A stretch of 64,000 nt of DNA. It comes from Candidatus Binataceae bacterium (GTDB lineage: Bacteria > Desulfobacterota > Binatia > Binatales > Binataceae). The notes beneath the pieces are model-generated. The model ran no database searches. It saw only the letters and a program-made list of their open reading frames with translations, and was not told the DNA's origin. How positions within the stretch are numbered: position 1 is the stretch's first letter; each line of letters begins with the position of its first letter. Where the stretch lies: NCBI GenBank assembly GCA_035531675.1, contig DATKSL010000033.1:160260-224259 (forward strand). Reading direction: 5' to 3'. Positions 9,390 to 64,000 of this stretch are shown piece after piece. A program made the translations under genes and the position numbers.

Positions 9390-10787
9390 TCAGATTACCG
9401 GCCATTTCGATTTGTCGGGCAGGCCGGTGCGCCGGCAGATCGCTTCGGCGGCCTGCTGGACCTCACGATAGAGCCGATCTTCGTCGATCATCGTGAGCCG
9501 ATAGTTATCGACCACCTTGCGGCCATCGACGAATACCGTATGGACGCTGCGGCCGTCGGCCGAATAGACCAGCTGATTCGCCACGTTCAGCAGCGGCGTC
9601 CATTCCGGCCGTTGCCGATCGTGCAGCACCAGGTCGGCCCGCTTGCCGGCCTCGATCGAGCCGATCTGATCCTCGCATAGCAGCGCGCGCGCCCCGCCCA
9701 GCGTCGCCATCTCGTAGGCCTTCTCAGCCGGAAACATCGTCGGGTCGCGCCGCGCATCCTTGAACAGTCCGGCCACCAGGTAGGTCGCACGCATCAGGTC
9801 GGAATAGTTCGAGGCGTTGTTGCCGTCGGTGCCGATTACCAGGTTGACGCCGGCCGCGGCCATCTCGGGCATCTTGCCGATCTGGGTGACGCCGTAGGCG
9901 ACCTTCAGCGCGGTGGTCGGGCAATGCGCCACGCTGACGCCATGCTCGGCCAGCAACTGGACCTCATGGTCGTCGAGATGAACGCAGTGAACGATGACCA
10001 CGTTGCGATCCAGGACTCCTATCTTGGCGAGGAATTCGATCGGTCGCAGGCCGTACTCCTTGAGAAAGCCCGCCGGATCCATCGCCGCCGGCGACATGTG
10101 GAAGTTCAGCCCCACCCGATGCTCATCCGCGATTCGCTTGGCGGCCTTCCAGAGCTCGGGCGTGCAGGTGGTATGGCCGACGATCATCGGCCACGCCATC
10201 AGCCGGCCATCGGCGTCCTCCCGATGAGTCGCCATCAGCCGCTCGAGGCTCGCGATCGCCTCGGCCGTCGTACGCCGATAGACCGCGGGCTCCGCCGGCC
10301 GGTCCCAGGTCCACTCGCCGATGCGACCCCTGATCCCGGTCGCCGCCAGCCCTTCGACCACCGCGTCGACGAAGCGGACCGTGCCGGCCTCGAGAAAGGT
10401 GGTGGTGCCCGATTTCAGCAGCTCCGCCGCCGCCAGTTGCGCCGAAAGCTGCTCCTCGCGCTCGTTGGCCGCGGAATACAGCGGGCACAGCCAATCGAAG
10501 ACATTGGCTTCGAAGTTGATGTCATCGGGTACGAAGCCGCGCGTGATGGGCTCGCCGGTGATGTGGATGTGGCAGTTGACCATGCCCGGGCAGGTGACGA
10601 ATCGCGAGCCATCCAGCTCTTCGCGGCTGGCGAAGCGCGCCTGGAGGTCCGCGGTCTTGCCGACCGCCACGATCTCCCGGCCGTGGATTGCGACCGCGCC
10701 GTCGGCGATAACCTCGCGGCGCGGGTTCATGGTCACCACCAGCGTGTGGGTGATCAACGTATCAAGGGACTGCTTCGGGCTCGTCAT
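9390..10787 (-). CDS. amidohydrolase family protein (TRZ/ATZ chlorohydrolase / nucleobase or MTA deaminase type)
   Basis: NCHIH metal-binding HxH motif, HxxH and a C-terminal Asp region, 465 aa. AGGTG-type RBS before the ATG at 10787. Confidence 0.75.
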   Translation of the reverse strand: MTSPKQSLDTLITHTLVVTMNPRREVIADGAVAIHGREIVAVGKTADLQARFASREELDGSRFVTCPGMVNCHIHITGEPITRGFVPDDINFEANVFDWLCPLYSAANEREEQLSAQLAAAELLKSGTTTFLEAGTVRFVDAVVEGLAATGIRGRIGEWTWDRPAEPAVYRRTTAEAIASLERLMATHREDADGRLMAWPMIVGHTTCTPELWKAAKRIADEHRVGLNFHMSPAAMDPAGFLKEYGLRPIEFLAKIGVLDRNVVIVHCVHLDDHEVQLLAEHGVSVAHCPTTALKVAYGVTQIGKMPEMAAAGVNLVIGTDGNNASNYSDLMRATYLVAGLFKDARRDPTMFPAEKAYEMATLGGARALLCEDQIGSIEAGKRADLVLHDRQRPEWTPLLNVANQLVYSADGRSVHTVFVDGRKVVDNYRLTMIDEDRLYREVQQAAEAICRRTGLPDKSKWPVI

Positions 10788-11095: not shown

Positions 11096-12397
11096 ATGCG
11101 AAACGCGCTGGTAAGGGCGCTAAGCGTCCTGTTAGGAGCAGTGCTGTTGATGGCGCTGGCTCTGGGCGGAGATGCGCGCGCCGCTGGCGAGGAGGGCCTA
11201 GCGCCTCCTGGCACCGTCATCACGACGAAGAACTGGAAGCAGTACAAGGGCGTGATGGAGCAGGGTCTGCAGGGGCTGTTCTCGGGCGACTATTTCTGGA
11301 AGTTCCCGGCCGACTTTCGCATCGAGATCGGACCGACCCACAATTATCCGCTGCCCAAGCTCTACCAAGAATACACCGAGAAATACAGCAAAGATGTGAA
11401 GATCGTCGACCTTCCTGACGGCGGCCACAGCATCAAGGGATACGTCGGCGGGTTGGCGTTCGCTCATCCGTCGGGGCCGCTCAAGGGTTGGGAGATACTG
11501 GTCAATACCTGGTTCGAGTATGTCCCGCACATCACCTGCGCGCCCAACAACCACGTCTTCCTGCGCGATCGGTATGGGAACCTGACGACCGAAGTTACCA
11601 CCACCGTTTACCGGCAATTCAACTTCGTCAGCGATCCCGGCGTGCCCAATTCCGATCCCGACGGCAAGGGCCTTTACTACTCGGAGTACACCCGGGTTCT
11701 CGCGCCCGAGCAGTCGCGCTACACCACGCAACTTACGCTCTATTACACCGATCCCACCAAGAGCGAGGACCTGTTCCTCTTCATCCCGGCGCTCAGGCGT
11801 ACGCTGCGCCTGTCGGCGGCCTCGCGATGCTCGCCGTTCGTGGGTACCGACTGGACCCAGGACGACGTCAAGCAGTTGTTCAATGGCGGGATCGTGCGTT
11901 TCGACGCCACCCTGGTCGGCGAACCCAAGATTCTCGCCCTGACGGTCGCCAACGAGTCGGCGGTCAGCAACATGAACAATTACTCGATCTTTTTCCCCGG
12001 TCCGAACATCGGCAAATGGGAAGTGCGCGATTCATACCTGCTTGACGTGCGGCGCATCCCCTCGCAGCGCTCCGGCTATTGTTTCGGTAAGCGGATGCTG
12101 TACGTCGACCAGCAGCAGTGGACCCAGTTCTGGGCCGACCTCTACGACGGGAACATGAAATACTGGAAGTCGACCTCTTTCCAGCAGATCGCCCACCAGG
12201 TTCCTGGCGTGGGCCCGGTGATGTATACCGGCGAGTACCTGGTTTCGCTCTGGGATCAGCAGAACAGCCATGCCAGCGCATGGATCGCGAATCCGCCCTA
12301 TGGCACCAACCAGCAGTGCGCGAACCTGGGCGGCATCAACTACACCGACGCCAAGCTCTACTCGAGTGTCGGTGGCTTGAGTTCGATCATGCAGTAA
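11096..12397 (+). CDS. DUF1329 family secreted protein (paralog 1)
   Basis: Signal peptide, about 430 aa, composition and motif pattern of DUF1329. About 45 % identical to a second copy at 54114-55433 (for example LRRTLRLSxAxRCSP, IGKWEVR, GYCxGKRxxY). Confidence 0.55.
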   Translation: MRNALVRALSVLLGAVLLMALALGGDARAAGEEGLAPPGTVITTKNWKQYKGVMEQGLQGLFSGDYFWKFPADFRIEIGPTHNYPLPKLYQEYTEKYSKDVKIVDLPDGGHSIKGYVGGLAFAHPSGPLKGWEILVNTWFEYVPHITCAPNNHVFLRDRYGNLTTEVTTTVYRQFNFVSDPGVPNSDPDGKGLYYSEYTRVLAPEQSRYTTQLTLYYTDPTKSEDLFLFIPALRRTLRLSAASRCSPFVGTDWTQDDVKQLFNGGIVRFDATLVGEPKILALTVANESAVSNMNNYSIFFPGPNIGKWEVRDSYLLDVRRIPSQRSGYCFGKRMLYVDQQQWTQFWADLYDGNMKYWKSTSFQQIAHQVPGVGPVMYTGEYLVSLWDQQNSHASAWIANPPYGTNQQCANLGGINYTDAKLYSSVGGLSSIMQ

Positions 12398-26232: not shown

Positions 26233-27561
26233 TCATACACCCGGCAGCGGAAAGAACCGCACCCCGTTGTGATTATCGCAACCCATGGTGGTGGTGGTAC
26301 CCGCGCAGTTGCCGGCGGGGAGCGCCGTATTGATAGCGCCCGGATCTTTCCGCAACTTTTCAAGATCGACCTCGGCCACAAAGGTTTCGTCGCTATTCAC
26401 GATGTAGGCGCGGTTGTGGCAGGTGTCGATCGTATCGCTATACGGAAGTATGGCAGCCTCGAACTGTGCGCCATCCGGCTGAAGCGGCAGGGCTGCGCTC
26501 ACAGCGTCCAAATCGTATGGGCTGATGTACTTCATGGGAGCTTTTGGCAGGCTCAGAAGCACGACTTCATTGTCGAGCAGTCCGGTCAGGAACGCCTCAT
26601 GAGTCATCGGATTGATCGTCACGCCGGGCAGAAGGTCGTTGGCGCCGGTGTCGAAGTTGAGCGAATTGGGCGGCGGTGTTTCGGCCTCATCCAGCGTGCA
26701 CGACGGGGGCATCCCGTTAAAGGTTGCGCCCGAAAGATTAAGCACCGAGGTAAGAACGTCACCGAAGTTGCCAATTACCCAGATGCCCGTAGTCGGGTCC
26801 GCCGCCGCGCCTTCCGCGTCGCCGTTGAGGTCGACCACGTTGCCATCGGTAAGCGTGCAGGCTGCGTTGGCCGCAACGTTAGTTGCGTACATGGTAGGGT
26901 CGATAAAATCCGAAGGACCCAGTGCGGTCCGTGCCCGCGGGTCGAGGCCGAAATTGTTGACCGGGCTGTCGAACTGCATCAGCGGGCCAAAGGTATTCGA
27001 AGCCAGGTCGAAGGTTGCCATCCCGGTGCAGTCGGTGAAGCTTCCGCCCGGGCAGGTAATCGGCGTCGAGGTCATCGAAACCAGCGCGCTGTTGTGAATC
27101 GAATCGAACACGATCCCGTCCGTGAAGCCCGGTCGGCTGCCGACTGGAAACGAGAACGGTGAGCCGGCTACGAGCGTATTGTCGCTTTCGTTGATTTCGT
27201 CGAGATAGCCCGTGGTCAGGATCGATCCGCTGACCACCAGCACCAGCCCCTGCTTCGCCGCGATCGCAGTCCCAATGGCGATGCCGCCGTGACCCAGATC
27301 GACGGTGGTCACGGTCGGGTCGGTGGTGTCGGGGTCGACGCTCAGATCGAGCACCGCGACTTTGGCGTCAGTTCCGCTGGTGGTTGGGAGCGGGACATAG
27401 GCGCGCTGGTGCTTGCAGTCGACCGCCTCCAGGCTGGCGTTGGTCGCATTTCTAATGGCCGCCGAAGGCGTCGGCGGCAGTGGTGAGCTGCCGTTGCTGC
27501 CGCCGCATCCGGCCCACAGCAGCGCCATCGACACGATCCCCACTAGCCAGGCCCGCTTCAT
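26233..27561 (-). CDS. secreted lipoprotein-like protein (443 aa), possible beta-propeller
   Basis: MKRAWLVGIVSMALLWAGCGG signal with a lipobox-like LWAG|C. Gly/Thr/Asp-rich repeats. Its ATG overlaps the stop of the upstream giant gene (ATGA at 27558-27561). Confidence 0.55.
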   Translation of the reverse strand: MKRAWLVGIVSMALLWAGCGGSNGSSPLPPTPSAAIRNATNASLEAVDCKHQRAYVPLPTTSGTDAKVAVLDLSVDPDTTDPTVTTVDLGHGGIAIGTAIAAKQGLVLVVSGSILTTGYLDEINESDNTLVAGSPFSFPVGSRPGFTDGIVFDSIHNSALVSMTSTPITCPGGSFTDCTGMATFDLASNTFGPLMQFDSPVNNFGLDPRARTALGPSDFIDPTMYATNVAANAACTLTDGNVVDLNGDAEGAAADPTTGIWVIGNFGDVLTSVLNLSGATFNGMPPSCTLDEAETPPPNSLNFDTGANDLLPGVTINPMTHEAFLTGLLDNEVVLLSLPKAPMKYISPYDLDAVSAALPLQPDGAQFEAAILPYSDTIDTCHNRAYIVNSDETFVAEVDLEKLRKDPGAINTALPAGNCAGTTTTMGCDNHNGVRFFPLPGV

Positions 27562-30500
27562 TTTCGCACCCCCATTCCCTGCGTATCGCTGCACACCGGT
27601 GCGGTCGCCGTGGTGGCGGCGTAATGCGGAAAGTCCCCCGGGACTGGAGTCGGCATCACCGTGGTGGGCGGCATCGTTCCCACCAGTGCCAGATGATAGG
27701 CCGGGGTCGGCTCGGGAGCCAACATCGCGGTCGGAAGGGTGCAGGTCGACGGGCCGGGCACATAGTTGGGGTCGGTAACCGTGATTACGTAATCCTTGCA
27801 ACCCTCTGCCGGACAGACGTAATAGGTCTCGCCATTCGCGTTTTTGGGACATGAGGGATCCGCCGGCGACTTATCCTTGCAATTGGCCAGCGGTGACGGA
27901 CCATCGGGATTGTGATCCTCCTGGGCCACGTAGAGGAACAGCCAGCCGGTTGAGGAATCGTAATAGTATTTGTCGAGACCGTTATGACCACTCATGTCCA
28001 TGGTACTAACGTAGGTCCCGTCCGAGTTGGTGATGTCACTCAGATTTGCAGCCGGGCTCAGGGTGTCCGTCGGCCATAGGCAAGCCGGTTGGCCGCGGTT
28101 GTCTGTAACCTTGGTGGTACCGTCGGGGCATCCCGCCGAGGCCAGCGTGATCCCGTCGGCCGGGCATCCGATGTAAGGATCTTGCGGCCCGGAGGTGGGA
28201 GTATAAGGACACCCGGCGAGGAGGGGATTCGACGGGCATTGCAGGTTGATTGGCACGGGCTTGTTGGGCAACCCCGGCAACAGGGTATTGCCGACCAGAT
28301 TGTCGCAAATCTCGTGATTACCGTTCTTGTCGACGTACAGATTATTCAGCTTGTTATAGTAGGCGCGTAATTCGAGGTCGTCGGGGCCAGCGCCGATCGT
28401 GCCGCCGCCGTAGGAGTGGTAGCCGCGTGCGATCGTGAACGACGACGCATCCGCGGGCTTGCCGTTCTTGTTCTGGTAGCAGATACCGATTCGCACGTAG
28501 AACGGGTTGGTGGCGCTGATACTGGGCTTGTAAGCATCCACAATGCCCAGCTCAAGGATCTTGGCGATCCCCGCGTCCGTGCCCTTGTCCTGCGCATCAA
28601 CCGCGGCTGTTACCGTGTAGCTCAGCCCGCTGGTTACCTTGGGCTCCCAAACTCCCAGCGCATTGCGGCTGGTGAGGGTCATCGCGCCATGCCCCCCGAA
28701 ATCGACCGCGTCCTTGGTGAAGGTGATCGCCTGCTTCTGCAGAAACGGCGGCTTCGTGCTGTCGGCATCGGGCGGATAGAGCATCTGGAGTTCCAGCGTC
28801 GCCATGCTCGACGGCGACATCAGCGCGGTCGGCCGGTTCTCGAGCACCGCATCCTGTGCACCCTCCGCCAGGCACTCGTCCACCGAGTTGCTCGAGGCGT
28901 TGATCACCAGGCCGTTGAGCGAGATCGGATGGGGTCCGTCGAAGCGCGTGCTGACCGTGTTTTTAGAGTCAGCGGCCACGAACCCGGACAGCGTGCCGTC
29001 GAGATCGACTACCGCGGTGTTCTGATCTCCGTCGCCGAAGCCCGAGCTCGGATTTAAGGGATCTTTGCCGAGGTTGACGTATTGCGTGTAGATCTGATGG
29101 CGCAGATCGGTATTGACGAAGCTCAACTCCGAGGTGTTCGCCAGCGTCGGATAGCTGCTCTGGTTTGACTGGAACCAGCCAAAAGCGGCATCACCCTCGT
29201 AGACCCAGTTCTTCTCTACGCCGTCCTTACCAGTCAGTTTACGAGCGTCGCCCCAGGCTTTGAGCGCCGCGGCGTCGTCACCCGTGAGCGCCGGACTCTG
29301 TTTGAAATCTACAAAACGATCGTGGATCAGACGGGCCGGGCCGTCGTAGATCATGTAGCCGAACATGTTCCAGTTGGGGTCGGGATAGCCTTTGCCGATC
29401 TCATCCGCGCTGTGCGGCTGGTCGCCCGTCTGGACCGGCGTCTGATCGATACAACCCGCCAGCGGCGCCTGACCGGCGAAAGAGGTGTCCGGCCGGGGGC
29501 ACGGACCGAAGCGATCGACATTGTTCTGACTGATTCCCTCGAACACCGAGTTCTCGGTCAGCATCCAGTCGCCCGGGGTGGCGCCGTCGACCCCGCCGGC
29601 GGTCAGCAGCGAGGCGCTGTCGCGGCTGGTCGCGAAGCGGCCGTGGTCGAGCACGAACCACTGATCTCTCAGCCAGACCCCGCGATCGCGGATGCGGAGC
29701 GCGGTCAGGCCGTCGAATTCGGCCAGCAGGTTGCGACTGTTAGGCGTGCCATCGACCGTCGGATGGAGCAGTGAGGCGTTGGATACGCTGTAAGCTCCCT
29801 CGCCGAAGAGGCCGTCGAAGCAGGCGCTGACGCGGTTGTCGCGGAAGGTTCCTACCGGCAGGTATTGGTTAAAATGGACCGCCGTGGGCGCGTTGATCGG
29901 GGGCGGAACGTACCAGTAGCCGACCCCTACGCCCTGGCATCCGTCGATTATATTGCCGGTCAACTGCGTGCCCGGATTGGTGATCCAGAAACCGCTGGCC
30001 GGTTCGATGTAAACCGGATTGTTAGCCGGACATCCTCCGCCCGCCAGCGGCGGGACATAGCCGCCGAGTTGGCCGTTGTATCCGAAGGTCGTACACGAGC
30101 CGTGGGTCGGGTTGGCGGTGTTGTCCATGTCGGGGATGTTGAAGCCGTTGTAGCCGATATTGTCGCCACCCGGCTTTCCATTGGTCAGGTAATCCCCTTT
30201 CCACCAATACTTGTCGATCAGCTCGTCCCGGGAGAATTTGTTGGTCTTGTAGATATCGAACGAGTTGCTCATCGCGCCGATGCCGAGATTGTCCCGGAAG
30301 GTGATGTTCTTCTCGTCGCCGATCTCTTCGTAAAAGAGATGGCCGACAGCACGGACGCATACCGTGTTCGAAATGGTCAGATTGTCGGTCGAGTGCACCG
30401 TTACGCACTTGTTGTAGCTGTGGTCGATGCTGTTGGAATCAACCAGCGCCGTCCCGCCGGCAAGTGGGCCGTCCATGTGAAAATGGATCGGATAGCTGCC

Positions 30501-31718
30501 GAGCTGATCCTTGCCGAACTTCTGCATCTCCACGCCCTGGATCGAGACCTCCTTGAAACCCATCAGGTACCTGGTCTCGCCGCCCCAATGGATATCGGCC
30601 TTATCCTTGCCATCGATGCTCGCGGTCAGCTTGATATTGCGGCTTAGCAATGCGACCGGGGCGCGCTCGTCAACGCCGTAGTTCTGCGCCGCCGGGTCAC
30701 TGTAGTTGAGCGGACTCGGCTGCGAGGTGCAGGCGCTGGTGCATCCCATGGGCGCCATGCCGCAGGCGAAGTAGGTCGGCACGTTGTTGACCATGCAGAA
30801 CTGGCTTGGCGTCGGCGCCGCGCTGCCGAAGTGGTAGTGAACCAGCGGTGTCGAAAGGAAAACGTCGCTGCCGGTCGGATTGTCAGCCGGCTTGCTCTTG
30901 ATGCTCGCAATCTTCACGATCTCGGTGTCGAACGGGCTGAAGCTGGTGCCGCCCACCGCAATCCAGTCATCGTCCTGCCAGCGACCGGTACCCTGGGTTA
31001 CGTCGTCGGCCAGCCGCAGCGCATCCGCGCCGTCGGTCCCAACCGGCACCGTGACTCCGCTGCCCTTGCCATAATGCTTGGGCGGCCCGGCGGGCTGCGA
31101 AAGGTAGCTCCAGTTAAGGCCGTTGGGCGGGACTCCCTTCTGCCCATACATCTCCAACGAGCCGCCGCTTTGAACCTGGATCCCCTTGCTGAAGTCCGGG
31201 CAGTTGGTCCCCGCCGCGCACGGACGTTTGCCGTTGAAGTCGAGTGTGACCAGCGTCATCGGATCCGTCATCCCGATCGGATGGGCCTTCTGGCCGATCT
31301 GGAGCAGGCCGTTGACCAGGATGGTGCCGACCTCCATCTTCACGGTCTTGTCTGGAAAGCAGAGCGTGGCGCCGGAATCGATGGTGATGGTGTTGAAGCG
31401 CTCCTCGCCCATGTAGCTCTTATCGACGTATACGCTCGGGCCGCATCCGTTGGCGCCGATCTCAAGGTCTTTGTTGGCGCCTTTTTTACAGCTCGAATTC
31501 GACAGCGGGATCGCCGATGCGCCGCAGATACCCGGATCCGCTTGGACCATGTTCCTGAAGTTTCCCGGGAGCGTCCTGGCGCCGCTGCCGCCGCTATACG
31601 CACTGACTATCAGCATCGTGGCTGCCGCGAATGCCCAACGGACGACCGTGAAGCTGCGCCGCCTGGGTCCGGAAGTCTGCGAACTGCCAGTGATTTCCGA
31701 AAAGATTTTCCTAAACAT
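27558..31718 (-). CDS. giant secreted G8-domain / right-handed parallel beta-helix protein (CEMIP/TMEM2-like), 1386 aa, Cys-rich C-terminal region
   Basis: N-terminal region with Tat-like RRRSF plus a hydrophobic signal. A G8-like Gly-spaced domain (res ~90-210). A central YPIHFHM...CVTVH...GHLFYEE block reminiscent of the CEMIP/TMEM2 beta-helix. Multiple CPxxGC-type Cys pairs near the C-terminus. Uninterrupted 4.16-kb frame. Confidence 0.6.
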   Translation of the reverse strand: MFRKIFSEITGSSQTSGPRRRSFTVVRWAFAAATMLIVSAYSGGSGARTLPGNFRNMVQADPGICGASAIPLSNSSCKKGANKDLEIGANGCGPSVYVDKSYMGEERFNTITIDSGATLCFPDKTVKMEVGTILVNGLLQIGQKAHPIGMTDPMTLVTLDFNGKRPCAAGTNCPDFSKGIQVQSGGSLEMYGQKGVPPNGLNWSYLSQPAGPPKHYGKGSGVTVPVGTDGADALRLADDVTQGTGRWQDDDWIAVGGTSFSPFDTEIVKIASIKSKPADNPTGSDVFLSTPLVHYHFGSAAPTPSQFCMVNNVPTYFACGMAPMGCTSACTSQPSPLNYSDPAAQNYGVDERAPVALLSRNIKLTASIDGKDKADIHWGGETRYLMGFKEVSIQGVEMQKFGKDQLGSYPIHFHMDGPLAGGTALVDSNSIDHSYNKCVTVHSTDNLTISNTVCVRAVGHLFYEEIGDEKNITFRDNLGIGAMSNSFDIYKTNKFSRDELIDKYWWKGDYLTNGKPGGDNIGYNGFNIPDMDNTANPTHGSCTTFGYNGQLGGYVPPLAGGGCPANNPVYIEPASGFWITNPGTQLTGNIIDGCQGVGVGYWYVPPPINAPTAVHFNQYLPVGTFRDNRVSACFDGLFGEGAYSVSNASLLHPTVDGTPNSRNLLAEFDGLTALRIRDRGVWLRDQWFVLDHGRFATSRDSASLLTAGGVDGATPGDWMLTENSVFEGISQNNVDRFGPCPRPDTSFAGQAPLAGCIDQTPVQTGDQPHSADEIGKGYPDPNWNMFGYMIYDGPARLIHDRFVDFKQSPALTGDDAAALKAWGDARKLTGKDGVEKNWVYEGDAAFGWFQSNQSSYPTLANTSELSFVNTDLRHQIYTQYVNLGKDPLNPSSGFGDGDQNTAVVDLDGTLSGFVAADSKNTVSTRFDGPHPISLNGLVINASSNSVDECLAEGAQDAVLENRPTALMSPSSMATLELQMLYPPDADSTKPPFLQKQAITFTKDAVDFGGHGAMTLTSRNALGVWEPKVTSGLSYTVTAAVDAQDKGTDAGIAKILELGIVDAYKPSISATNPFYVRIGICYQNKNGKPADASSFTIARGYHSYGGGTIGAGPDDLELRAYYNKLNNLYVDKNGNHEICDNLVGNTLLPGLPNKPVPINLQCPSNPLLAGCPYTPTSGPQDPYIGCPADGITLASAGCPDGTTKVTDNRGQPACLWPTDTLSPAANLSDITNSDGTYVSTMDMSGHNGLDKYYYDSSTGWLFLYVAQEDHNPDGPSPLANCKDKSPADPSCPKNANGETYYVCPAEGCKDYVITVTDPNYVPGPSTCTLPTAMLAPEPTPAYHLALVGTMPPTTVMPTPVPGDFPHYAATTATAPVCSDTQGMGVRK

Positions 31719-48375: not shown

Positions 48376-49437
48376 TTAGCGCACCTCGAAAATCGTCGTC
48401 ACGAAATTGTCATTGCATACCCAGGTCGGACAGAAATCCGCATGCCGGACCGCGGCCTGCAGTTCCGTCATCGCGCCGGCCATCACGATCGTTACCAGCA
48501 TCTCCCATTGGGCATGCCGCTCCATCTCGTCGAAGCTCCAGTGCTCGCCCCAGTTATCGAATTTGCCGCGGCGCCATTGCTCGAACCGCGCGCGATCGGC
48601 CTCGACGTCGGGATGTACCCGCTCGAGCTCCCAGGCCGAGTCGTTGGCGTGCGACCAGTCGACGCCGGCCACCAGCGCGACGCGCCACGGACTGCGCCGC
48701 ATACTGACGGCGATCTGCCGGCCGAGCCGAAACGCCTCCGCCGCAGTAAGCGGCGGGTTGCGATTGCTCTGGTCCCACGGCGAGAGGCCTTCGTTGTTGC
48801 GCTCTCGGCCAAAACGGAACGGATCGATTCCGATTGGAACGATCGGAGTCGCGAATTTGCGCTGATCGAAATCGAGATGTACTGCGGTGGCGAGCGCGTT
48901 GTGCCCGAGACCATTGGCGTGCAGCGGCTCATCCACGACGCGAGCCTTGATGTCCGCGCCCTCCAAATCGCGGGCCAGCTGCAGCGCGGCAGGCCGATGA
49001 CCCGCCAGGACGTCGACCCGGTCGGGATCTTCTTCAAAATAGTTGCCGCGGAAGAAGCCCCACAGGCAGTAGAGTTGCGTGCGCACCTGCTCATGCGCGG
49101 AAATCCAGAACTGGGGCCGATCCGCGTCGGCGAAGGTCTCGCCGCTGTCGCGGTAGAGGACCATGATCAGATCCGGCGCGAAGCGATCCAGCTCCGCGCG
49201 CAACAGCCGGAATTGTTCGATTTCGTGCTGCTGGGCGATCTTGCCGGCGGTGAATCCCTGGTCCGAATCGCTGCCCCATTCGCGGCGCATCGCTTCGGGC
49301 CAGTTCCGCGGATCGCGAAGATGAGGCCGCGTCGCCCATCCAGCGCCAAGATTCGCCTGCAGAACCCACGGCATGTAGCGCGGCTTCATGCGCAGGAAGG
49401 GAAAGTCCGAGACTGTCAGTCCGAGGATTTCTGCCAT
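48376..49437 (-). CDS. LigB-like (class III extradiol ring-cleavage dioxygenase family) protein, possibly a degenerate non-catalytic type
   Basis: N-terminus MAEILGLTVSDFPFL parallels the LigB family start (GITSSHIPAL), but the first His ligand appears replaced by Asp. A second His position (NDH) aligns with RDS. A later SH motif is retained. Start at 49437; the ORF is open to 49503. Confidence 0.4.
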   Translation of the reverse strand: MAEILGLTVSDFPFLRMKPRYMPWVLQANLGAGWATRPHLRDPRNWPEAMRREWGSDSDQGFTAGKIAQQHEIEQFRLLRAELDRFAPDLIMVLYRDSGETFADADRPQFWISAHEQVRTQLYCLWGFFRGNYFEEDPDRVDVLAGHRPAALQLARDLEGADIKARVVDEPLHANGLGHNALATAVHLDFDQRKFATPIVPIGIDPFRFGRERNNEGLSPWDQSNRNPPLTAAEAFRLGRQIAVSMRRSPWRVALVAGVDWSHANDSAWELERVHPDVEADRARFEQWRRGKFDNWGEHWSFDEMERHAQWEMLVTIVMAGAMTELQAAVRHADFCPTWVCNDNFVTTIFEVR

Positions 49438-49480
49438 CGCTTTGCCGCCGTCGCTGGCGGTTGCCCGACACTTACGGCGG

Positions 49481-49498
49481 CTTGACAAGGAAGTCAAG
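49481..49498. promoter_or_regulatory. 18-bp perfect inverted repeat CTTGAC-AAGGAA-GTCAAG in the TetR/LigB-like divergent intergenic region; candidate TetR operator overlapping a TTGACA -35-like hexamer
   Basis: Read directly from the sequence. It lies in the 110-bp gap between divergent genes at 49437 (-) and 49548 (+). A second palindrome, ACAGCTGT, lies about 30 bp downstream. Confidence 0.45.
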
Positions 49499-49547
49499 CG
49501 CATGTTTCAAGGAGATGTTCTAAACAGCTGTCTGAACCGGGAGCTCG

Positions 49548-53965: not shown

Positions 53966-53994
53966 TTGACAAACAAATAAGCCATTGTTATGGA
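53966..53994 (+). promoter_or_regulatory. candidate sigma70-like promoter (TTGACA-17 nt-TATGGA) upstream of DUF1329 paralog 2
   Basis: Hexamers and 17-nt spacing were read from the sequence. It is located in a 300-bp AT-rich leader. The -10 element is weak. Confidence 0.3.
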
Positions 53995-54113
53995 GCGGAC
54001 TGCGCGTACCGCTGTTTCGGGACTTTGAGCGTCGCTTGGGACCGACGCTGTTACAACGTGCTCGCGCGTCAATCTTGGACAAGGTTGCCGCGGCGGCCGA
54101 AAGGAAGGGGCAG

Positions 54114-55433
54114 ATGGTTACGAGTCGAACTGTTGGACGGGTTCTGGCGCTGTTCGTGGCCTTGGTTCTGATCGGCGCGTCGATGGCGCCGCCCGCGCGC
54201 GGTGCCGGGCCGGAAGCATCGCTTCCGGTCGGCACCGTCATTACCGAGAAGAACTGGGAGCAGTACAAGGCCTTCATGAACCCCGGTTTGCAGGCGCTTT
54301 GGGCCGGCACCTATCAGTGGAAGCTAGGGCCTCAGTTCTCGATGGAAATCGGGCCAACGCATCATTACGAATGGCCGCCGACCTATAAGAAGCTGACCGA
54401 GGAATACGCCGGCAAGGTTCAGATCAAGACCCTGCCTGACGGCCGCCACATCCTGGAAAACTACGTCGCCGGAATGCCGTTCCCGAACCCGCAGGAGCCG
54501 ATGAAGGGTTGGAAGATACTGGCCAACGACTGGTTCGCCTACGTTCCCTACCTGATCTGCAACGATTCAGTGGGCCAGGTGTTCCGCGATCGGATGGGCA
54601 ACGTCAGCCAGAACGAAAGCATCATCGTGCTGCGCATCTACGACCATATCGCCGATCCAAACCGGCCGGTTACGGATCCCAAGGCGTCCGGCATCTATTA
54701 CACGGAATACTTTGAACTGACCAAGCCCGAGCAGGCGCGCTATACCGCGATTCTGACGGTCTTCTACCAGGATCAGACCAAGAACGAAGATACCTTCCTG
54801 TTCGTGCCGGCGCTGCGGCGGACGCTGCGCCTGTCGTCGGCGGCGCGATGCAGCCCGGTGTTCGGCTCCGACGCCACCAACGACGACACTCGTCATGGCG
54901 CTTTCAACGGCAACATCACCAAGTTCGACGCGGCGTTCCTCGGCGATGCGCGGGTGATCGAGCAGACCAACCCGGATGTCGTCAAGTCGGGCTTCCTTGA
55001 GAATTTCATTCCGCCGCTCTATTTTCCCAAGCCCTTCATCGGCAAATGGGAAGTGCGCAACGTATACGTGATCGACGCGCGCCATATTCCTGCGCTGCGC
55101 CCCGGCTACTGCTACGGCAAGCGGATCATGTACTGCGACAAGGAGACCGGCAACGCGAAGTGGGCCGAGCTCTACGACGAGAACCTGAAGCTGTGGAAGA
55201 TCTTTTACGATCCGCAGGGGATGGTGAAGGTACCGGGCGAGGGCGAGTATTGGACCAATGCCGCCTGGGGCACGATTATCGACGTCCAGAACATCCACGA
55301 GACCTGGGTCCATCTGTCCGGCCCTACCGGTCCGGTCCGGGCAGACGCTGACTGCGGGCACGTCAATGGCGTGAATCTGACCGACGCCGGTCGCTATGGC
55401 AGCGTCCGCGGCTTGTCGGAAATCATGCGCTGA
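54114..55433 (+). CDS. DUF1329 family secreted protein (paralog 2)
   Basis: AAGGAAGGGG RBS and ATG at 54114. Signal peptide. Colinear with the 11096 gene. Confidence 0.55.
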   Translation: MVTSRTVGRVLALFVALVLIGASMAPPARGAGPEASLPVGTVITEKNWEQYKAFMNPGLQALWAGTYQWKLGPQFSMEIGPTHHYEWPPTYKKLTEEYAGKVQIKTLPDGRHILENYVAGMPFPNPQEPMKGWKILANDWFAYVPYLICNDSVGQVFRDRMGNVSQNESIIVLRIYDHIADPNRPVTDPKASGIYYTEYFELTKPEQARYTAILTVFYQDQTKNEDTFLFVPALRRTLRLSSAARCSPVFGSDATNDDTRHGAFNGNITKFDAAFLGDARVIEQTNPDVVKSGFLENFIPPLYFPKPFIGKWEVRNVYVIDARHIPALRPGYCYGKRIMYCDKETGNAKWAELYDENLKLWKIFYDPQGMVKVPGEGEYWTNAAWGTIIDVQNIHETWVHLSGPTGPVRADADCGHVNGVNLTDAGRYGSVRGLSEIMR

Positions 55434-58295: not shown

Positions 58296-58491
58296 AGTTC
58301 GTGTCTGACATGCCGGGAGCGGAGATTACGCCTGGCCAATTGCGAAATACTATATCCCGAGCTCACCTTTCTGATAGCGATTGTGCCGGCTATCTCCCGG
58401 TGCTAGTGATGCCCGGAAGAAAGCTCTCAGGCTCTTAAGCTTCCCCGTCGCTGCCGCTGAGGCTGGCGGGGAGAAACATCGAGGTAATCCT

Positions 58492-58896
58492 ATGCTTAGC
58501 AAACAGGCTCTCGGGCTCGACGACGCCAAGCGTATTGCCGCGGCCGCAGCCGCCGAAGCTCGCAAGAACGAGTGGAACGTTACGATCGCGGTGGTTGACG
58601 ACGGCGGCCACCTGCTCTACCTGGAGCGAATGGATGGTGCGCCGAAGCCGACCGCCACCGTCGCCACCGAGAAAGCGCGCACCGCGGCGTTGTTCAAGCG
58701 TCCGACGCTCAGTTTCGAGGAGATGCTTAAGGGTGGACGATTCGGCGTGCTGTCATTGCCGGGCGTGACGCCGATCGAAGGCGGCGTGCCGCTTATTGTT
58801 CAGAATGAATGCCTCGGCGCGGTTGGAGTGTCAGGCGTTCAATCGCCGCAGGATGCTCAGTGTGCACGCGCCGGTGCGGCCGTGATCGGAGCATAA
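58492..58896 (+). CDS. GlcG/HbpS-like (DUF336) heme-binding family protein
   Basis: 134 aa. GAGGT RBS. Pattern GLDDAKRI...VVDDGGHLL...GGVPL of the GlcG family. Confidence 0.6.
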   Translation: MLSKQALGLDDAKRIAAAAAAEARKNEWNVTIAVVDDGGHLLYLERMDGAPKPTATVATEKARTAALFKRPTLSFEEMLKGGRFGVLSLPGVTPIEGGVPLIVQNECLGAVGVSGVQSPQDAQCARAGAAVIGA

Positions 58897-58939: not shown

Positions 58940-60094
58940 TCATCGCCAGAGTTGTGCGGTCGCCAGTTGAGCGCCCTCGGCCATCGCTTCGAACTTGGCC
59001 CACACGACCGTGGGGTGAACCTCCGTCTTATAGGTCGCCTGCGAGGAGAAGCCGCAGTCGGTTCCTGCGATCACATTTTCCCGCCCCACCAGCTTCGCGT
59101 ACCTGCTGAGACGCTCGGCGATCAGTTCGGGATGCTCGACGATGTTGCTGGCGTGGGTGACCACCCCGGGGATCAACAGCTTGCCGGCCGGCAGCTTCAC
59201 GTCTTCCCAGACGTGGTACTCGTGTTCGTGCCGCGCGTTGGCCGCTTCGAACGAATAGGCGGCGGCGTTTATCTTGAGCATCGCCGGCGCGATGTCTCTT
59301 AACTGTGCGTCATGAACGCGCGGTCCTTCGTTGATTCCGTAGCAGGTATGGAAGCGCACCTTTTCCGCGGGGATGCCGCGCAACCCGTGGTTGATCGCCT
59401 CGACGTAGAGCCCGGCTCGCTGGTCTCGCTGGGCGGCGTTCAACGATGAGTCGCTATAAATGTCCGACAGGAAGGGATCATCGATCTGGAGCAGGAAGCC
59501 GGCGTCGACGATCATCTGATACTCAGTTCGCAGGGCGTCGGCGACCGCGCCGAGGAAGGCCTCTTCGGTCGGATAGTACTCGTTCCTGCCCACGCCGCTC
59601 GGCGCCACCGCGGGCATGAAGACTTCCTCGGCGTTCACTCCCTTGATCGCCGCCTTCAGATTGTCGATATCCTTGCGCAGAGCTTCCTGCCCCCGGTAGC
59701 TGACCGGCCCGGTGCAGACCATCGGCACGATCGGTGCGACTGCGCCGCCAAGCATCGCCTGTCCGAAGTATTGTTCGTAGTACTCGGGAAAGGCCGCCCG
59801 TTCGTCGGCAAACAGCGTCAGCGCCGCGCCGGCCCTCGCCTCGAAACCGGTGAGCCGCTCGCCGACATACGAAAAAAATCCGGGCTTCCCCTGCTCGCCG
59901 TCGGTCAAGATGTCAATCCCGGTGGCCGCCTGCTTGCGGACAATCTCGGCGACCGCGCTCCGCACCCGGCGCGCGTAAACTTGCTCGTCACAGGGCTCGC
60001 CCTTTATCCGGGCCTTCATCAGATCGAGCAGATCCTTGGGGCGCGGCAGGCTTCCGCAGTGAGTGGTCAGAATGCGATCGGTGCTGTGCTTCAT
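58940..60094 (-). CDS. MetE-like (cobalamin-independent methionine synthase II family) Zn-enzyme paralog
   Basis: 384 aa. HxC (HTCYG), conserved Glu and DCGF Cys motif resembling the MetE C-terminal Zn site. Confidence 0.7.
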   Translation of the reverse strand: MKHSTDRILTTHCGSLPRPKDLLDLMKARIKGEPCDEQVYARRVRSAVAEIVRKQAATGIDILTDGEQGKPGFFSYVGERLTGFEARAGAALTLFADERAAFPEYYEQYFGQAMLGGAVAPIVPMVCTGPVSYRGQEALRKDIDNLKAAIKGVNAEEVFMPAVAPSGVGRNEYYPTEEAFLGAVADALRTEYQMIVDAGFLLQIDDPFLSDIYSDSSLNAAQRDQRAGLYVEAINHGLRGIPAEKVRFHTCYGINEGPRVHDAQLRDIAPAMLKINAAAYSFEAANARHEHEYHVWEDVKLPAGKLLIPGVVTHASNIVEHPELIAERLSRYAKLVGRENVIAGTDCGFSSQATYKTEVHPTVVWAKFEAMAEGAQLATAQLWR

Positions 60095-60199
60095 GTCAAT
60101 GCACTCCGTGGTTTGGCTCTGCGAGCCGACAACCTGGCCGCCAGGCGGGAGACTCTCACGGCGGCGAAATTCCGCAGCGGGCGGTAAGGACTATACTCG

Positions 60200-61306
60200 T
60201 CAGCTCCAGACTTCGCTTGCGACATCCACCACTAATCTCAGCTTGGCCCATTGTTCATCCTCGCTGAGCAGATTTCCTTCCTCGGTGGAGGCGAAACCGC
60301 ATTGCGGGCTCAGGCAGAGTTGAGCCACGTCCGCGTACTTCGCCGCTTCGTCTATCCTGCGCTTGATAGCGTCGCGCGGCTCGAGCGCGCCGCTCTTCGA
60401 CGTCACCAGTCCCAGCACGACCAGCTTGTTGCCCCGGGGCAGGAAGCGCAGCGGCTCGAAACCGCCCGCGCGTTCGGTGTCGAATTCCAGAAAGTAGCCG
60501 TCGTAGTCGACGCCGCCCAGCAGCAGCTCCGCAACCGGCTCGTAACTGCCCTCCGAGATCCACGATGATCGGAAATTGCCGCGGCAGACGTGCCCCGTGA
60601 TCACCATATCCGCCGGCTTGCCCGCGACCGCGTAGTTGACCACGCGGGCGTAGGTCGCGCCGAGTTGATCGAGACTCTCACCGCGCGCGCTCGCCTTCTC
60701 TCGCTGCTCGCGCGAGCACAGAAAGGCCCAGGCCGTGTCGTCGAACTGCAGATAACGGCAGCCGGCCCGATAAAACGCCTGCACCGCTTTGCGATAGGTC
60801 TTGGCCAGGTCGTCGAAGAAGCCGTCGAGTTCGGGATAAGCGGCCGGATCGATCAGATCGCGACCAGTGCGTACGTAGAGCATCGCGGGCGAAGGAATCG
60901 TCATCTTCGGCACTCGCCGGGTGTGCGAGCGCAGGAATTTGAAATGCGCGAGCATCGCGTGATCGTCGGGAAAATCAAGTTTGCCCGCGACCCGGATTCC
61001 TGCGGCCTTGGTCGCGGCGCCACGAAAGCTGATACCGCTTTCGTCAACCGTGCGCTCGCAACCGTTGAGTCCCCACAGGAAATCGAAGTGCCACCAGGAG
61101 CGGCGAAACTCGCCGTCGGTGATGGCTTGCAAGCCGCTCTCTTCCTGTCGGGTGATGATCGTCTCGATCTCCCGATCCTCAACCTCCCGGAGGCTTTCGA
61201 TGGCGAGACTGCCGGCCTGATATTGCGCGCGCGCCTGCTTGAGGCGCTCGGACCGCAGGAGGCTGCCGACCTGATCGGCGCGAAACGGTGGCGTACTTCG
61301 AGGCAT
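60200..61306 (-). CDS. MetE-like (cobalamin-independent methionine synthase II family) Zn-enzyme paralog
   Basis: N-terminal PPFRADQVGSLLRS nearly identical in pattern to the 8221 gene. HVCRGN and SPQCGF motifs. Start at 61306. Confidence 0.7.
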   Translation of the reverse strand: MPRSTPPFRADQVGSLLRSERLKQARAQYQAGSLAIESLREVEDREIETIITRQEESGLQAITDGEFRRSWWHFDFLWGLNGCERTVDESGISFRGAATKAAGIRVAGKLDFPDDHAMLAHFKFLRSHTRRVPKMTIPSPAMLYVRTGRDLIDPAAYPELDGFFDDLAKTYRKAVQAFYRAGCRYLQFDDTAWAFLCSREQREKASARGESLDQLGATYARVVNYAVAGKPADMVITGHVCRGNFRSSWISEGSYEPVAELLLGGVDYDGYFLEFDTERAGGFEPLRFLPRGNKLVVLGLVTSKSGALEPRDAIKRRIDEAAKYADVAQLCLSPQCGFASTEEGNLLSEDEQWAKLRLVVDVASEVWS

Positions 61307-61484
61307 AGACTTATTCCCAATCCTTTGTGCGGGAAACATAAGATCATCAGCGCTCCGAACGCAATCTGCGCGCCTCACAAGTGTCTGAAGTCCACCGAAC
61401 TTGACAGCGGTTAGCAGGATCGACGAGATATGGCGCAGCGCAAGCCGCAGTCTCGATGATGAATACTCAACTCAGGAGCGAGCC

Positions 61485-62762
61485 GTGCCCATAGGACCAC
61501 TCATAAGATATCCATCGTTTGGTTTATCGCTACTGTCGTTCGATACGCTCGCGCCCGGCATCAACTCCGAAGTTGTAGCGCTAACGGCCGAAGATGGCGG
61601 CGAATCCAAGGGCGTGCTCTACAGCAAGGGCGGCGAAAAGACCGTCGTCTGCATGATGCATCCGCGTGCGGACATGAGCCGCCATTATGTGATCCCGTAT
61701 CTGCTCGAGGCCGGCTTCGCCGCTTTTGGCCAGGAGGGACGTTGGCCGGGCAACGACATCGCCTGCATCCACGAGCTGCTGCTGATGGATATTGCGGCCT
61801 CGGTCAAGCTTCTCCAGGCGCGCGGTTTTCAGAAGATCGTGCTGCTCGGCAACAGCGGCGGCGGGTCGCTCTACACCTTCTACCAGGCGCAAGCGGTCAC
61901 GGCGGTACCCAACCGTTTGACGGATACGCCGGCCGGCGACCCATACGATCTCAACCGCTTCCAGATGCCGCCGGCGGACGGGATGGTGATCATCGCCGCG
62001 CATCTGGGCGAAGGCAAAGTGCTGCAGGCTGCGATCGATCCGTCGGTGACCGACGAGGCCGATCCGCTGTCAAGCGATCCGAGCCTCGATATGTACAATC
62101 CGGCCAACGGTTTCCGCGAGCCGCCGGAATCGAGCAAGTACACCAACGAATTTCTGCAGCGTTATCGCGCGGCGCAGACCATGCGAGTGGCGCGTATCGA
62201 CGCGATCGCGCGCCGCTATATCGAAGAGCAGCGCTACTTTGCCGAGCTTACGCGCGAGCCGGCCTTCGACACCCAACCTCCCGCCCGGCGCAGCTTTGTG
62301 AGCCGGCGAGCGGTGAGCGGGCGCTACCTGCTGATAAATCGAACCGAAGCGAATCCGGCCTTCGCGGATCTTTCGATCGATCCTTCGCTGCGCACTTACG
62401 GGTCGCTCTTCTCGCCGCGCCCCGACCTGTTCAACTACACCGAAGCCGGCTTTGGAAGGTACCAGACGCCGCGCGCATGGTTGAGCACCTGGTCGGGACT
62501 GTCATCGCGCGCCGCGGTGCTCGACAATATCACCCGCATCAAGGCCCCGACCCTGGTGATCAACTACACCGGCGATCACGCTATCTATCCGTCGAATTCG
62601 GCAGCGATTTACCGCCAGTCGGCCGCCGCTGACAAACAATTGGAGCAGGTCGACGGCGATCACTTCGGCAATCCACTGCCGTCCAGGCCTGACCGCGGCG
62701 GACGACCGGAAGCGGCGAAAGTGATCGTGCGATGGCTGCGGGAAAGATTCCCGGCGCGCTAG
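61485..62762 (+). CDS. alpha/beta hydrolase-fold protein (425 aa)
   Basis: GTG start with an AGGAG RBS. GNSGGG nucleophile elbow and a C-terminal GDH region. The ORF is open from 61401. Confidence 0.55.
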   Translation: MPIGPLIRYPSFGLSLLSFDTLAPGINSEVVALTAEDGGESKGVLYSKGGEKTVVCMMHPRADMSRHYVIPYLLEAGFAAFGQEGRWPGNDIACIHELLLMDIAASVKLLQARGFQKIVLLGNSGGGSLYTFYQAQAVTAVPNRLTDTPAGDPYDLNRFQMPPADGMVIIAAHLGEGKVLQAAIDPSVTDEADPLSSDPSLDMYNPANGFREPPESSKYTNEFLQRYRAAQTMRVARIDAIARRYIEEQRYFAELTREPAFDTQPPARRSFVSRRAVSGRYLLINRTEANPAFADLSIDPSLRTYGSLFSPRPDLFNYTEAGFGRYQTPRAWLSTWSGLSSRAAVLDNITRIKAPTLVINYTGDHAIYPSNSAAIYRQSAAADKQLEQVDGDHFGNPLPSRPDRGGRPEAAKVIVRWLRERFPAR

Positions 62763-62801: not shown

Positions 62802-63491
62802 TCATACGTTCAGCCGAGGCGGAAGCGCGGCCGCAACCTTCTCGATCGAGCCTTCGAGCCCCGCGTTCATCGCTTCGCCGCCCGGAATCCGCATCGAGAA
62901 GATACTTTCGATCGAGGTGTAGTCGTGATACCCCAGCCGCGCGATCGGCCGCAGCCTCAGGATATCGATACAGCCGTCGGCGCGCAGCGCGTCGTCCGCG
63001 ATGTGGATCGCGATGACCTGGCCGAACACCACACTGGCTGAGCCCATCACGCCGTTGCCGGGCAGGCGCACGGTCTGCAGATAGCGGCACTCGAAATGAA
63101 TCGGTGATTCGGCGACCATCGCCGGGCGGACCAGGCGCCCGGGCGCCTTGGTGAGGCCCGCGATCTCGAATTCGTCCACCTCCGGCGGCAGTTCCTGCGC
63201 CGTCAGATTGACCGCTTCGCGCAGCGCGTAAGTCGCCATGTTCCATACGAACTCGCCGGTCGCCTCGGCATTCGCAACGCTGTCCTTGAATTTACCCTGC
63301 GTGTTCTGGTTGGCGCAGAACAGCACGATCGGCGGATCGAAGGTGACATTCTGAAACTGGCTGAACGGGGCGAGATTATGACGGCCGGTCGCATCGATCG
63401 TCGAGATCCAGCCGATCGGTCTCGGCACCACGCAGGACTTGAAGGGATCGTGCGGCAGATTATGCGGCGTGCGGCCCGGTTCGTAATACAT
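62802..63491 (-). CDS. flavin reductase-like (NAD(P)H:flavin oxidoreductase, PF01613-type) protein
   Basis: PxxxFxSxxxxPRPIGWISTxD...NLAPFS motif set. GGAGG RBS 5 nt before the ATG at 63491. Confidence 0.7.
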   Translation of the reverse strand: MYYEPGRTPHNLPHDPFKSCVVPRPIGWISTIDATGRHNLAPFSQFQNVTFDPPIVLFCANQNTQGKFKDSVANAEATGEFVWNMATYALREAVNLTAQELPPEVDEFEIAGLTKAPGRLVRPAMVAESPIHFECRYLQTVRLPGNGVMGSASVVFGQVIAIHIADDALRADGCIDILRLRPIARLGYHDYTSIESIFSMRIPGGEAMNAGLEGSIEKVAAALPPRLNV

Positions 63492-63632
63492 AGTCGCCTC
63501 CGGCGCCAAAGGTTATGACACTCCATCGCTCATCGCAAATTCTTCGCGATGACGACTAAGGCGTACGAGAACCGGCGCTCGCTGATCACGGCCGGAGGTC
63601 ATCCCGCCGCTGAAGGCGGCGGCACGGCCGGC

Positions 63633-64000
63633 CTAATGGGTAATCGATAATTCAAGCCGGCTGATATGCCACTGGCCGCCGTCTTTAGTCACTCGTGCCT
63701 GCAATCCGGCATAGGCGATGATCGTGATCGGTGTCGGCTCGAGCTTGAGCTTGGTGACGTAGCCGCGAATTACAGTGGCGCCTTCGACCTCGCGCACGTC
63801 GAAGTTGGTCAGCAGATGGCGCGCGTGATCTTCGTTGCCCTTGCGGATGTGCTCGGTGATAAAGCCGGCGATCGCTTCGCGTCCCTTGAACTCGCCGTAA
63901 GCGTGGAAGACGCCGTCGGCGGTGAAGAACGAAGCAAAGCCGTCGGGACGATGGCCGTCCAGTTCTAGGTAGAGCTGAATCAGGGTTTCGTGAATCGCGA
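63633..64000 (-). CDS. NTF2-like/SnoaL-like (ketosteroid-isomerase-fold) protein, C-terminal 121 codons; N-terminus lies beyond the window end
   Basis: Manual minus-strand translation gives AIHETLIQLYLELDGHRPDGF...TKDGGQWHISRLELSITH* with stop TAG at 63633-63635. Not in the supplied ORF track because no start codon falls inside the window. Confidence 0.5.
   Translation of the reverse strand, partial: AIHETLIQLYLELDGHRPDGFASFFTADGVFHAYGEFKGREAIAGFITEHIRKGNEDHARHLLTNFDVREVEGATVIRGYVTKLKLEPTPITIIAYAGLQARVTKDGGQWHISRLELSITH

Follow-up and report, generated by a model that had tools for sequence, protein, structure and literature searches.

Free-standing MetE-type barrels from a Candidatus Binataceae contig as probable homocysteine methyltransferases with a non-canonical methyl donor

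A 64,000-nucleotide stretch of the genome of a Candidatus Binataceae bacterium (GenBank assembly GCA_035531675.1, contig DATKSL010000033.1, positions 160,260 to 224,259; hereafter the window) encodes three proteins, P1, P2 and P3, each of which is a free-standing copy of the catalytic (beta/alpha)8 barrel of MetE, the methionine synthase that does not depend on cobalamin. They are probably zinc-dependent homocysteine S-methyltransferases, or 'core' methionine synthases, which probably use a non-canonical methyl donor. The three genes are new members of known, uncharacterised subfamilies and represent neither a new kind of system nor a new mechanism. Their positions and lengths in amino acids (aa) are as follows.

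P1: 8221-9363, plus strand, 380 aa; member of the PRK06520 subfamily, more divergent than P3.
P2: 58940-60094, minus strand, 384 aa; single barrel of the MetE type from a clade of its own with high conservation.
P3: 60200-61306, minus strand, 368 aa; belongs to the PRK06520 / YxjH / 1YPX subfamily of single-barrel MetE-like proteins and lies upstream of P2 in the tandem.

The three MetE-like open reading frames (ORFs) listed in a first-pass annotation of this DNA were located at these positions. All are intact with the expected coding signature, and a tblastn search of the window with the three proteins as queries matched only these loci. The sole Pfam match of each is PF01717 (Meth_synt_2), with 49.8 bits for P1, 56.0 for P2 and 54.7 for P3 against a gathering cutoff of 21. 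P3 (592 bits) and P1 (356 bits) also score above the cutoff of NF005085 (PRK06520; 313 bits), whereas P2 (52 bits) falls below it and reached no family at its cutoff in the NCBIfam profile search. The cutoff of the PRK06233 equivalog, 576 bits, is reached by none of them (P3 411, P1 267 and P2 45 bits). P3 matches the Listeria monocytogenes structure 1YPX in the Protein Data Bank (PDB) over its full length (E = 2.8e-121); the best PDB sequence matches of P2 are marginal, and the only annotation name in its clade is 'cobalamin-independent methionine synthase II family protein'. The P3 start at 61306 is consistent with its homologues and with public 368-aa gene calls. An identical P2 is present on seven public contigs, with gene-finder calls of 368 and 384 aa for the pair, and has been recorded from a metagenome-assembled genome (MAG) named Candidatus Binataceae bacterium. 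The homologues of P1 are 376-393 aa long. The G+C content of the window is 63 %, and that of third codon positions (GC3) is 0.72-0.9 in its real genes. With GC3 values of 0.75-0.81, as in the neighbouring genes, the three genes look native.

Both the zinc site and the homocysteine pocket of MetE can be traced in all three proteins. In a MAFFT alignment of the C-terminal domain of E. coli MetE with P1, P2, P3 and four P2 homologues, the zinc ligands H641, C643, E665 and C726 (E. coli MetE) occupy invariant columns. The same holds for S433, E484 and D599, which in both MetE and MesD anchor homocysteine by its carboxyl and amino groups (Price et al., PMC7857596). Listed in the order of the three pocket residues followed by the four ligands, the positions aligned with E. 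coli MetE are the following.

P1: S13, E72, D200, H250, C252, E285, C346.
P2: S15, E67, D205, H249, C251, E283, C347.
P3: S15, E66, D189, H239, C241, E274, C336.

The HxC and late cysteine motifs noticed in the first pass were recovered as H250-Q-C252 and Q-C346-GF in P1, H249-T-C251 and D-C347-GF in P2, and H239-V-C241 and Q-C336-GF in P3. The alignment with E. coli MetE that had been proposed as a check brought all four His/Cys/Glu/Cys ligands into register in each protein, and with complete zinc ligands P1-P3 are probably active, as had been surmised. Of 35 aligned sequences from the two subfamilies, 34 have the full set of seven residues; the exception is P0113, a close P2 homologue (74 % identical), which has a Tyr in place of the zinc ligand equivalent to Cys643. 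The seven do not vary either across a set of nine P2-like proteins that are more distant and come from cultured bacteria and haloarchaea. Since the homocysteine-binding residues are invariant, the acceptor is most likely still homocysteine and not a phenol or an unrelated thiol. The alternative thiol or phenol acceptors considered in the first pass are thus disfavoured by the conserved homocysteine pocket.

The fold predicted for P2 agrees with this assignment. The best fold matches of the AlphaFold2 model (predicted local distance difference test 84, predicted template modelling score 0.88) are MetE C-barrels and the MesD structure 3RPD. In the Foldseek comparison, the model gave a template modelling (TM) score of 0.75 and an E-value of 6e-18 against T. 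maritima MetE (1XR2/1T7L); against MesD, the TM score was 0.72 when normalised to P2 and 0.80 when normalised to 3RPD. An assignment of P1-P3 to the UroD-type decarboxylases, or to another kind of TIM-barrel protein that has no zinc site, can practically be dismissed. UroD is remotely related to MetE, and UroD chains do appear among the weak fold matches of the P2 model, but they reach TM scores of only 0.35-0.48 with E-values of about 1e-6, compared to 0.75 and about 1e-18 for MetE (Foldseek). Moreover, all zinc ligands are present, and P1-P3 match no Pfam family except PF01717 and show no URO-D match. A UroD identity was therefore rejected on zinc site, domain content and fold match. The first-pass annotation had named misaligned ligands, or membership in UroD or another zinc-free TIM-barrel family, as outcomes that would overturn its proposal; alignment and fold gave neither, and the structure prediction it had called for placed P2 closest to the C-terminal barrels of MetE and not to UroD. 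A split MetE, as in the archaeal two-protein form, was also considered for the tandem and rejected: both genes match only Meth_synt_2, both carry the full zinc site, and the pair includes no zinc-free Meth_synt_1 partner.

P1-P3 depart from canonical MetE in the parts of the protein that handle folate. In the T. maritima enzyme, the pterin is held by Glu583, Trp539 and Lys104 and the glutamate tail by Arg15, Lys18, Arg493 and Arg496, and an invariant Asp-Met-Val (DMV) motif couples the homocysteine and folate sites (PMC539065). The N-terminal barrel is absent from P1-P3, and its folate O4- and glutamate-tail-binding residues are gone with the domain. The DMV motif (489-491 in E. coli numbering), which lies five residues past the well-anchored E484, is replaced by SWW in P1, WWH in P3 and GFF in P2. 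The position of W561 is a Phe, a Tyr or a gap, and E605 aligns with a Glu in P3 only, across an insertion in an uncertain column. Because this folate-handling apparatus is gone, as in the folate-independent 'core' synthases, we infer a non-canonical donor. By analogy with MetE and MesD, zinc would bind the thiol of homocysteine as the thiolate, the Glu ligand of the zinc would give way, and the thiolate would attack the methyl group to form methionine. The donor would presumably not be methyl-tetrahydropteroyl-triglutamate bound in the canonical manner. Candidate donors are a corrinoid protein, a monoglutamyl methylfolate or methylpterin bound in another way, a sulfonium compound, or some molecule that a partner protein provides.

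The main rival explanation is that P1-P3 are ordinary housekeeping B12-independent methionine synthase isozymes, which use 5-methyl-tetrahydrofolate directly, perhaps as the monoglutamate, without an N-terminal barrel. Active site and homocysteine pocket are complete, and much of the pterin contact in T. maritima MetE comes from the C-terminal barrel (PMC539065). In addition, relatives of P2 are located beside metF-purU-folD-folB in Croceicoccus, beside folE in the alphaproteobacterial locus L083 and beside a full-length metE. However, this explanation appears rather unlikely in view of the replaced DMV motif in all three proteins, the lost W561, the Glu at E605 in P3 alone (in its uncertain column) and the folate O4 and glutamate-tail residues that are missing with the N-terminal domain. 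The characterised single-barrel enzymes MesA, MesB and MesD do not use methylfolate either (PMC7857596, PMC7005905), and a plasmid copy in Pantoea, 60 % identical to P2, is found in a non-biosynthetic context.

For zinc-dependent homocysteine methyltransferases, the links of family members to methionine metabolism are favourable evidence. The gene yxjH, whose family is under methionine control in Firmicutes, is governed by a Met T-box, is induced in the absence of methionine and is co-transcribed with luxS in Lactobacillus (PMC6004538). On a plasmid of Rhodococcus sp. PD04 (L089, 3677-7203), a P2-like gene for a single barrel begins 30 bp behind a full-length metE. In L083 (6851-11164), which stems from a MAG, a SAM-II riboswitch, metZ, apaG, folE and a gene 68 % identical to P2 are arrayed on one strand; about 3 kb, with three genes, separate the riboswitch from the P2-like gene downstream. 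Several other observations weigh against this assignment. No assay of any member of either subfamily was found in the searched literature, in which the YxjG/YxjH papers deal with regulation only. No riboswitch precedes P1, P2 or P3, and the Rfam scan of the window was empty. Likewise, none was found directly upstream of the P2-like gene in 18 proteobacterial loci, the distant SAM-II element of L083 being the sole one. Among the window genes scanned, there was no corrinoid, MesX (DUF1852) or folate one-carbon gene. Around the close P2 clade, the neighbouring genes differ greatly from locus to locus, most of them being catabolic or without a connection to methionine. Finally, three putative methionine synthases within 64 kb, besides any MetE or MetH that the genome may have, seem beyond biosynthetic need.

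The comparison with known systems places the three proteins outside canonical MetE, split MetE and MesD. The YxjG/YxjH-type proteins (PRK06520/PRK06233; 1YPX) share size, single barrel and zinc and homocysteine residues with P3 and P1. The differences are the scores of P3 and P1 below the PRK06233 cutoff, a window without Met T-box or S-box, and the apparent operon of P1 with a decarboxylase homologue. Canonical two-barrel MetE (TIGR01371 / PRK05222) has in common with P1-P3 the catalytic C-terminal barrel, the H-x-C...E...C site and the S/E/D pocket. However, at about 750 aa it is twice the size of P1-P3 (368-384 aa), which have no Meth_synt_1 domain and do not conserve DMV and W561. Membership was rejected on the single domain, the changed methylfolate contacts and scores of 17-38 bits, far below the cutoffs of 541 and 930 bits. 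MesD of the MesD/MesX system (ACIAD3523; 3RPD) is a folate-independent enzyme of aerobes with a single barrel and identical zinc and homocysteine residues, but P2 matches 3RPD only with E = 7.8e-6 and 28 bits, and P3 has no match at E < 0.01. About 55 % identity or more to ACIAD3523-type proteins is the threshold for MesD membership (PMC7857596). No MesX gene (DUF1852, PF08908) was found among the neighbours of P1, P2 and P3 or the other window genes scanned, and MesD membership was rejected because of the marginal sequence similarity and the lack of an adjacent DUF1852 gene. The core-MetE proteins MesA and MesB of methanogens and Dehalococcoides have a single barrel with a zinc site and a donor other than methylfolate, as would apply to P1-P3. 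They occur in anaerobes with corrinoid proteins of the Wood-Ljungdahl pathway or methanogenesis (PMC7857596). No corrinoid-protein gene was seen among the scanned genes of the window; MesA, MesB and MesC were set against P1-P3 by description and profiles. The archaeal-type profiles PRK04326, PRK00957 and PRK09121 gave 24-93 bits with P1-P3 at cutoffs of 258-406. Epoxyalkane:coenzyme M transferase (EaCoMT; XecA/EtnE) is a MetE-like zinc enzyme of about 370 aa which activates a thiol, coenzyme M, for alkyl transfer in a catabolic pathway. It differs in that coenzyme M is not an amino acid, whereas P1-P3 keep the amino-acid-binding residues.

The neighbourhood of P1 contains the most interesting lead of this analysis. 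Two genes precede P1 on the same strand.

6391-7236, plus strand: F420-dependent luciferase-like oxidoreductase (LLM); TIGR03619 with 217 bits at a cutoff of 167.
7247-8224, plus strand: homologue of 4,5-dihydroxyphthalate decarboxylase (PhtD-like), cytoplasmic, with a solute-binding-protein fold; PDB 9JP7 with E = 1.6e-65.

The stop of the decarboxylase homologue, which also has weak NMT1/SsuA matches, overlaps the start of P1 by 4 bp (translational coupling). The LLM gene, the PhtD-like gene and P1 form an apparent operon with the LLM gene as its first gene, and this arrangement is kept in L100. Relatives of the decarboxylase family (36-38 % identical) are also found just upstream of P2-type genes in two MAGs (L038, 8904-9908; L045, 8008-8973). 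The pair of a decarboxylase-like and a MetE-like gene therefore recurs across two MetE-like subfamilies, and the product of 7247-8224 is a possible functional partner of P1. Other genes of the P1 clade adjoin genes for periplasmic solute-binding proteins. Convergent with P1 is a TRZ/ATZ-family amidohydrolase gene (9390-10787, minus strand), whose best matches are the models for 5'-deoxyadenosine, methylthioadenosine and S-adenosylhomocysteine deaminases, all below their cutoffs. It may reflect a link to the S-adenosylmethionine cycle or a coincidence.

More distant relatives of P2 also occur in catabolic surroundings. On sphingomonad plasmids (L087, 5992-8262; L103, 4995-7285), a MetE-like gene 41 % identical to P2 forms a module with NTF2 and IclR genes in lignin-aromatic clusters, next to ligM/metF/purU/folD/folB or a hydroxycinnamoyl-CoA hydratase/lyase gene. 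No study of the MetE-like gene of this module was found in the searched literature. Roseobacters have a module of cupin, MetE-like, alpha/beta-hydrolase and RraA genes (about 40 % identical to P2), and in Rhodococcus and Dietzia a P2-like gene (about 40 % identical) is paired with a 2-oxoglutarate (2OG) oxygenase gene. These contexts point two ways, towards methionine and folate metabolism and towards aromatic catabolism. In SYK-6-type sphingomonads, both are linked via the methyl-tetrahydrofolate released by O-demethylation (PMC11868366). Whether DmtS, an O-demethylase of Novosphingobium, might be MetE-like was also considered; the enzyme is of the VanA-like (Rieske) type and unrelated.

The first-pass annotation had hinted at substrate-specific methyl or alkyl transferases, for instance in aryl-methyl-ether or thiol chemistry. 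In such a catabolic role, the enzymes would move a methyl group directly from a methoxylated aromatic (aryl methyl ether) to a thiol or, like EaCoMT, add a thiol to an electrophile made by the neighbouring oxygenases. The coupling of P1 to the decarboxylase homologue downstream of an F420-dependent oxidoreductase gene, with a StyA-like monooxygenase gene 2.4 kb away, is in line with such a role, as are the decarboxylase genes preceding the P2-type genes of L038 and L045, the sphingomonad and Roseobacter modules, and a window dense in Rieske oxygenases, hydrolases and decarboxylases. Nevertheless, this role is clearly unlikely. The residues that bind homocysteine's amino and carboxyl groups are invariant even in the copies within catabolic clusters, and no precedent for a corrinoid-free direct transfer of methyl from ether to thiol was found in the searched literature. 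Furthermore, the context of the close P2 clade is not conserved, and the link to the decarboxylase is limited to two or three lineages. If P1-P3 are homocysteine methyltransferases, a methyl donor derived from catabolism is possible, in particular for P1 with its coupled decarboxylase homologue, and the gene context gives circumstantial support to aryl methyl ethers as the methyl source. A more specific and very unlikely version is that some single-barrel MetE-like enzymes, among them P1 and possibly P2, are cofactor-free demethylases of aromatic catabolism. Here, zinc-activated homocysteine would accept the methyl group straight from an aromatic acid that carries a methoxy group, or else from a small donor delivered by a partner, to give methionine and a phenol. 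The partner may be the decarboxylase-like protein in the window and the NTF2-like protein in sphingomonads.

The window as a whole is rich in catabolic genes. It encodes three Rieske oxygenase alpha subunits, five luciferase-like oxidoreductases and several alpha/beta hydrolases and Amidohydro_2 proteins, as well as glutathione S-transferases, an FAA hydrolase, a dienelactone hydrolase, a StyA-like monooxygenase, MsrA and an O-methyltransferase. Genes for LigM, MetF, FolD, DUF1852 or a corrinoid protein did not turn up in the part of the window's gene set that was scanned. DUF1329/LolA-like genes are located at 11096-12397 and 53985-55433 (both plus strand), each beside an MFS transporter gene. 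Together with these pairs, the five LLM and three Rieske alpha genes look like a general genome feature rather than a discrete island.

In the second part of the window, P3 and P2 are separated by a short spacer and flanked by two divergent or convergent genes.

60095-60199, minus strand: P3-P2 spacer of 105 bp.
61401-62762, plus strand: ORF without a Pfam or NCBIfam match, divergent from P3, with good coding signature.
58489-58896, plus strand: HbpS/GlcG-like gene, convergent with P2; PF03928 with E = 2e-38.

No terminator-like or promoter-like site was found in the spacer, and a GGAG motif lies about 10 nt ahead of the ATG of P2. P3 and P2 are probably co-transcribed as a two-gene operon. 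A terminator between the two genes was considered and rejected, as the two terminator-like matches sit within P3, at chance level. Among 80 loci with P2 relatives, a PRK06520-type gene occurs up to 4 kb upstream on the same strand in six. Two of these loci, L005 and L049, are from close relatives of the window organism and have the tandem and the wider synteny in common, with a P3-P2 spacer of about 110 bp in L005 and 33 bp in L049. An independent adjacent pair is present in L009; its two genes are about 320 bp apart, and the upstream one shows no more than 49 % identity to P1/P3. In two Bryobacterales loci, PRK06520-type and P2-type genes are near each other with opposite-strand genes between them. 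By a rough estimate, well under one case would be expected by chance in 80 loci if each genome has a few PRK06520 genes, and the recurrence of the tandem points to a weak functional link.

The neighbours found in the window itself recur in no loci but L005, L049 and L100, which are from close relatives. The HbpS/GlcG-like gene is retained beside P2 only in L005 and L049. The ORF at 61401-62762, whose product has PDB matches only at E = 0.3-1 to lipases and esterases (marginal), is kept beside the pair in L049 and on the public contigs, where it is called as 425 aa. Clustering of the neighbours from 73 loci yielded no conserved partner for the close P2 clade, as no neighbour occurred in more than 10 loci. 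The genes folE and metZ and those for NTF2 and flavin reductase were considered as recurring neighbours of P2 and rejected, since each was limited to a single locus and tblastn gave no recurrence in other loci. On the plasmid of Pantoea sp. At-9b (L085, 7212-10090), the P2 homologue is flanked by flavin reductase, ABM monooxygenase and NTF2-family genes. These flanks echo the flavin reductase (62802-63509) and SnoaL-like (63633-63998) genes near the P3-P2 tandem in the window.

The relationship among the three genes differs from the one first proposed. P1 and P3 are 44 % identical over their full length, whereas P2 and P3 are only 24 % identical over 249 aa. As judged by sequence, P1/P3 on the one hand and P2 on the other represent two ancient subfamilies and not a recent local expansion. 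Owing to the 24 % identity and the different old subfamilies, the P3-P2 tandem is not a duplication. The term paralogs used in the first pass is therefore appropriate at the superfamily level, but not beyond it for the tandem pair, and the notion of an expansion by tandem duplication does not hold.

The description of these genes as uncommon is also contradicted by their distribution. Homologues 68-86 % identical to P2 are spread over many phyla of soil bacteria, with members in Binatia, Bryobacterales, Latescibacterota, Gemmatimonadota, Chloroflexota and Alpha-, Beta- and Gammaproteobacteria, and close relatives of P2 were confirmed at at least 337 places in species-representative genomes, a count obtained with six peptide patterns alone. 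An exhaustive HMMER search assigned 988 clusters (50 % identity) to the wider P2-like family at E <= 1e-30. Extra copies nearby recur as well: in two Bryobacterales MAGs, a second P2-like paralogue, 45-46 % identical, lies on the other strand at a distance of about 7 kb (L035, 1985-3154; L040, 1973-3142). The closest homologue from a cultured organism is the Pantoea plasmid copy. The P1 clade has many members that are 65-72 % identical, in Xanthobacteraceae and others, and a metagenome scan with P1 returned 5 loci only. P3-like genes are present on replicons of Klebsiella, Priestia, Pediococcus and Listeria.

Outside MesA-D, the annotation 'methionine synthase' is attached to a very large number of single-barrel MetE relatives, to which the P2-like family contributes about 1000 clusters at 50 % identity. 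If Binataceae-like MAGs depend on such enzymes, it would be a mistake to derive the B12 and folate needs in soil metagenomes from counts of metE and metH. If the methyl group comes from catabolic intermediates, the demethylation of carbon sources would be tied directly to methionine supply, and should the demethylase proposal be true, the removal of methoxy groups from lignin or xenobiotics would be coupled with the methionine pool independently of folate and B12. To this set, the window contributes three clean examples ready for assay, together with two gene partnerships that recur.

Two further genes of the window lie apart from these subjects. A sizeable ORF at 48376-49503 (minus strand) has a good coding signature and is matched by neither Pfam nor NCBIfam. 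Amid the catabolic genes, the stretch 27558-31718 (minus strand) encodes a protein of 1386 aa that contains G8 and CEMIP beta-helix domains.

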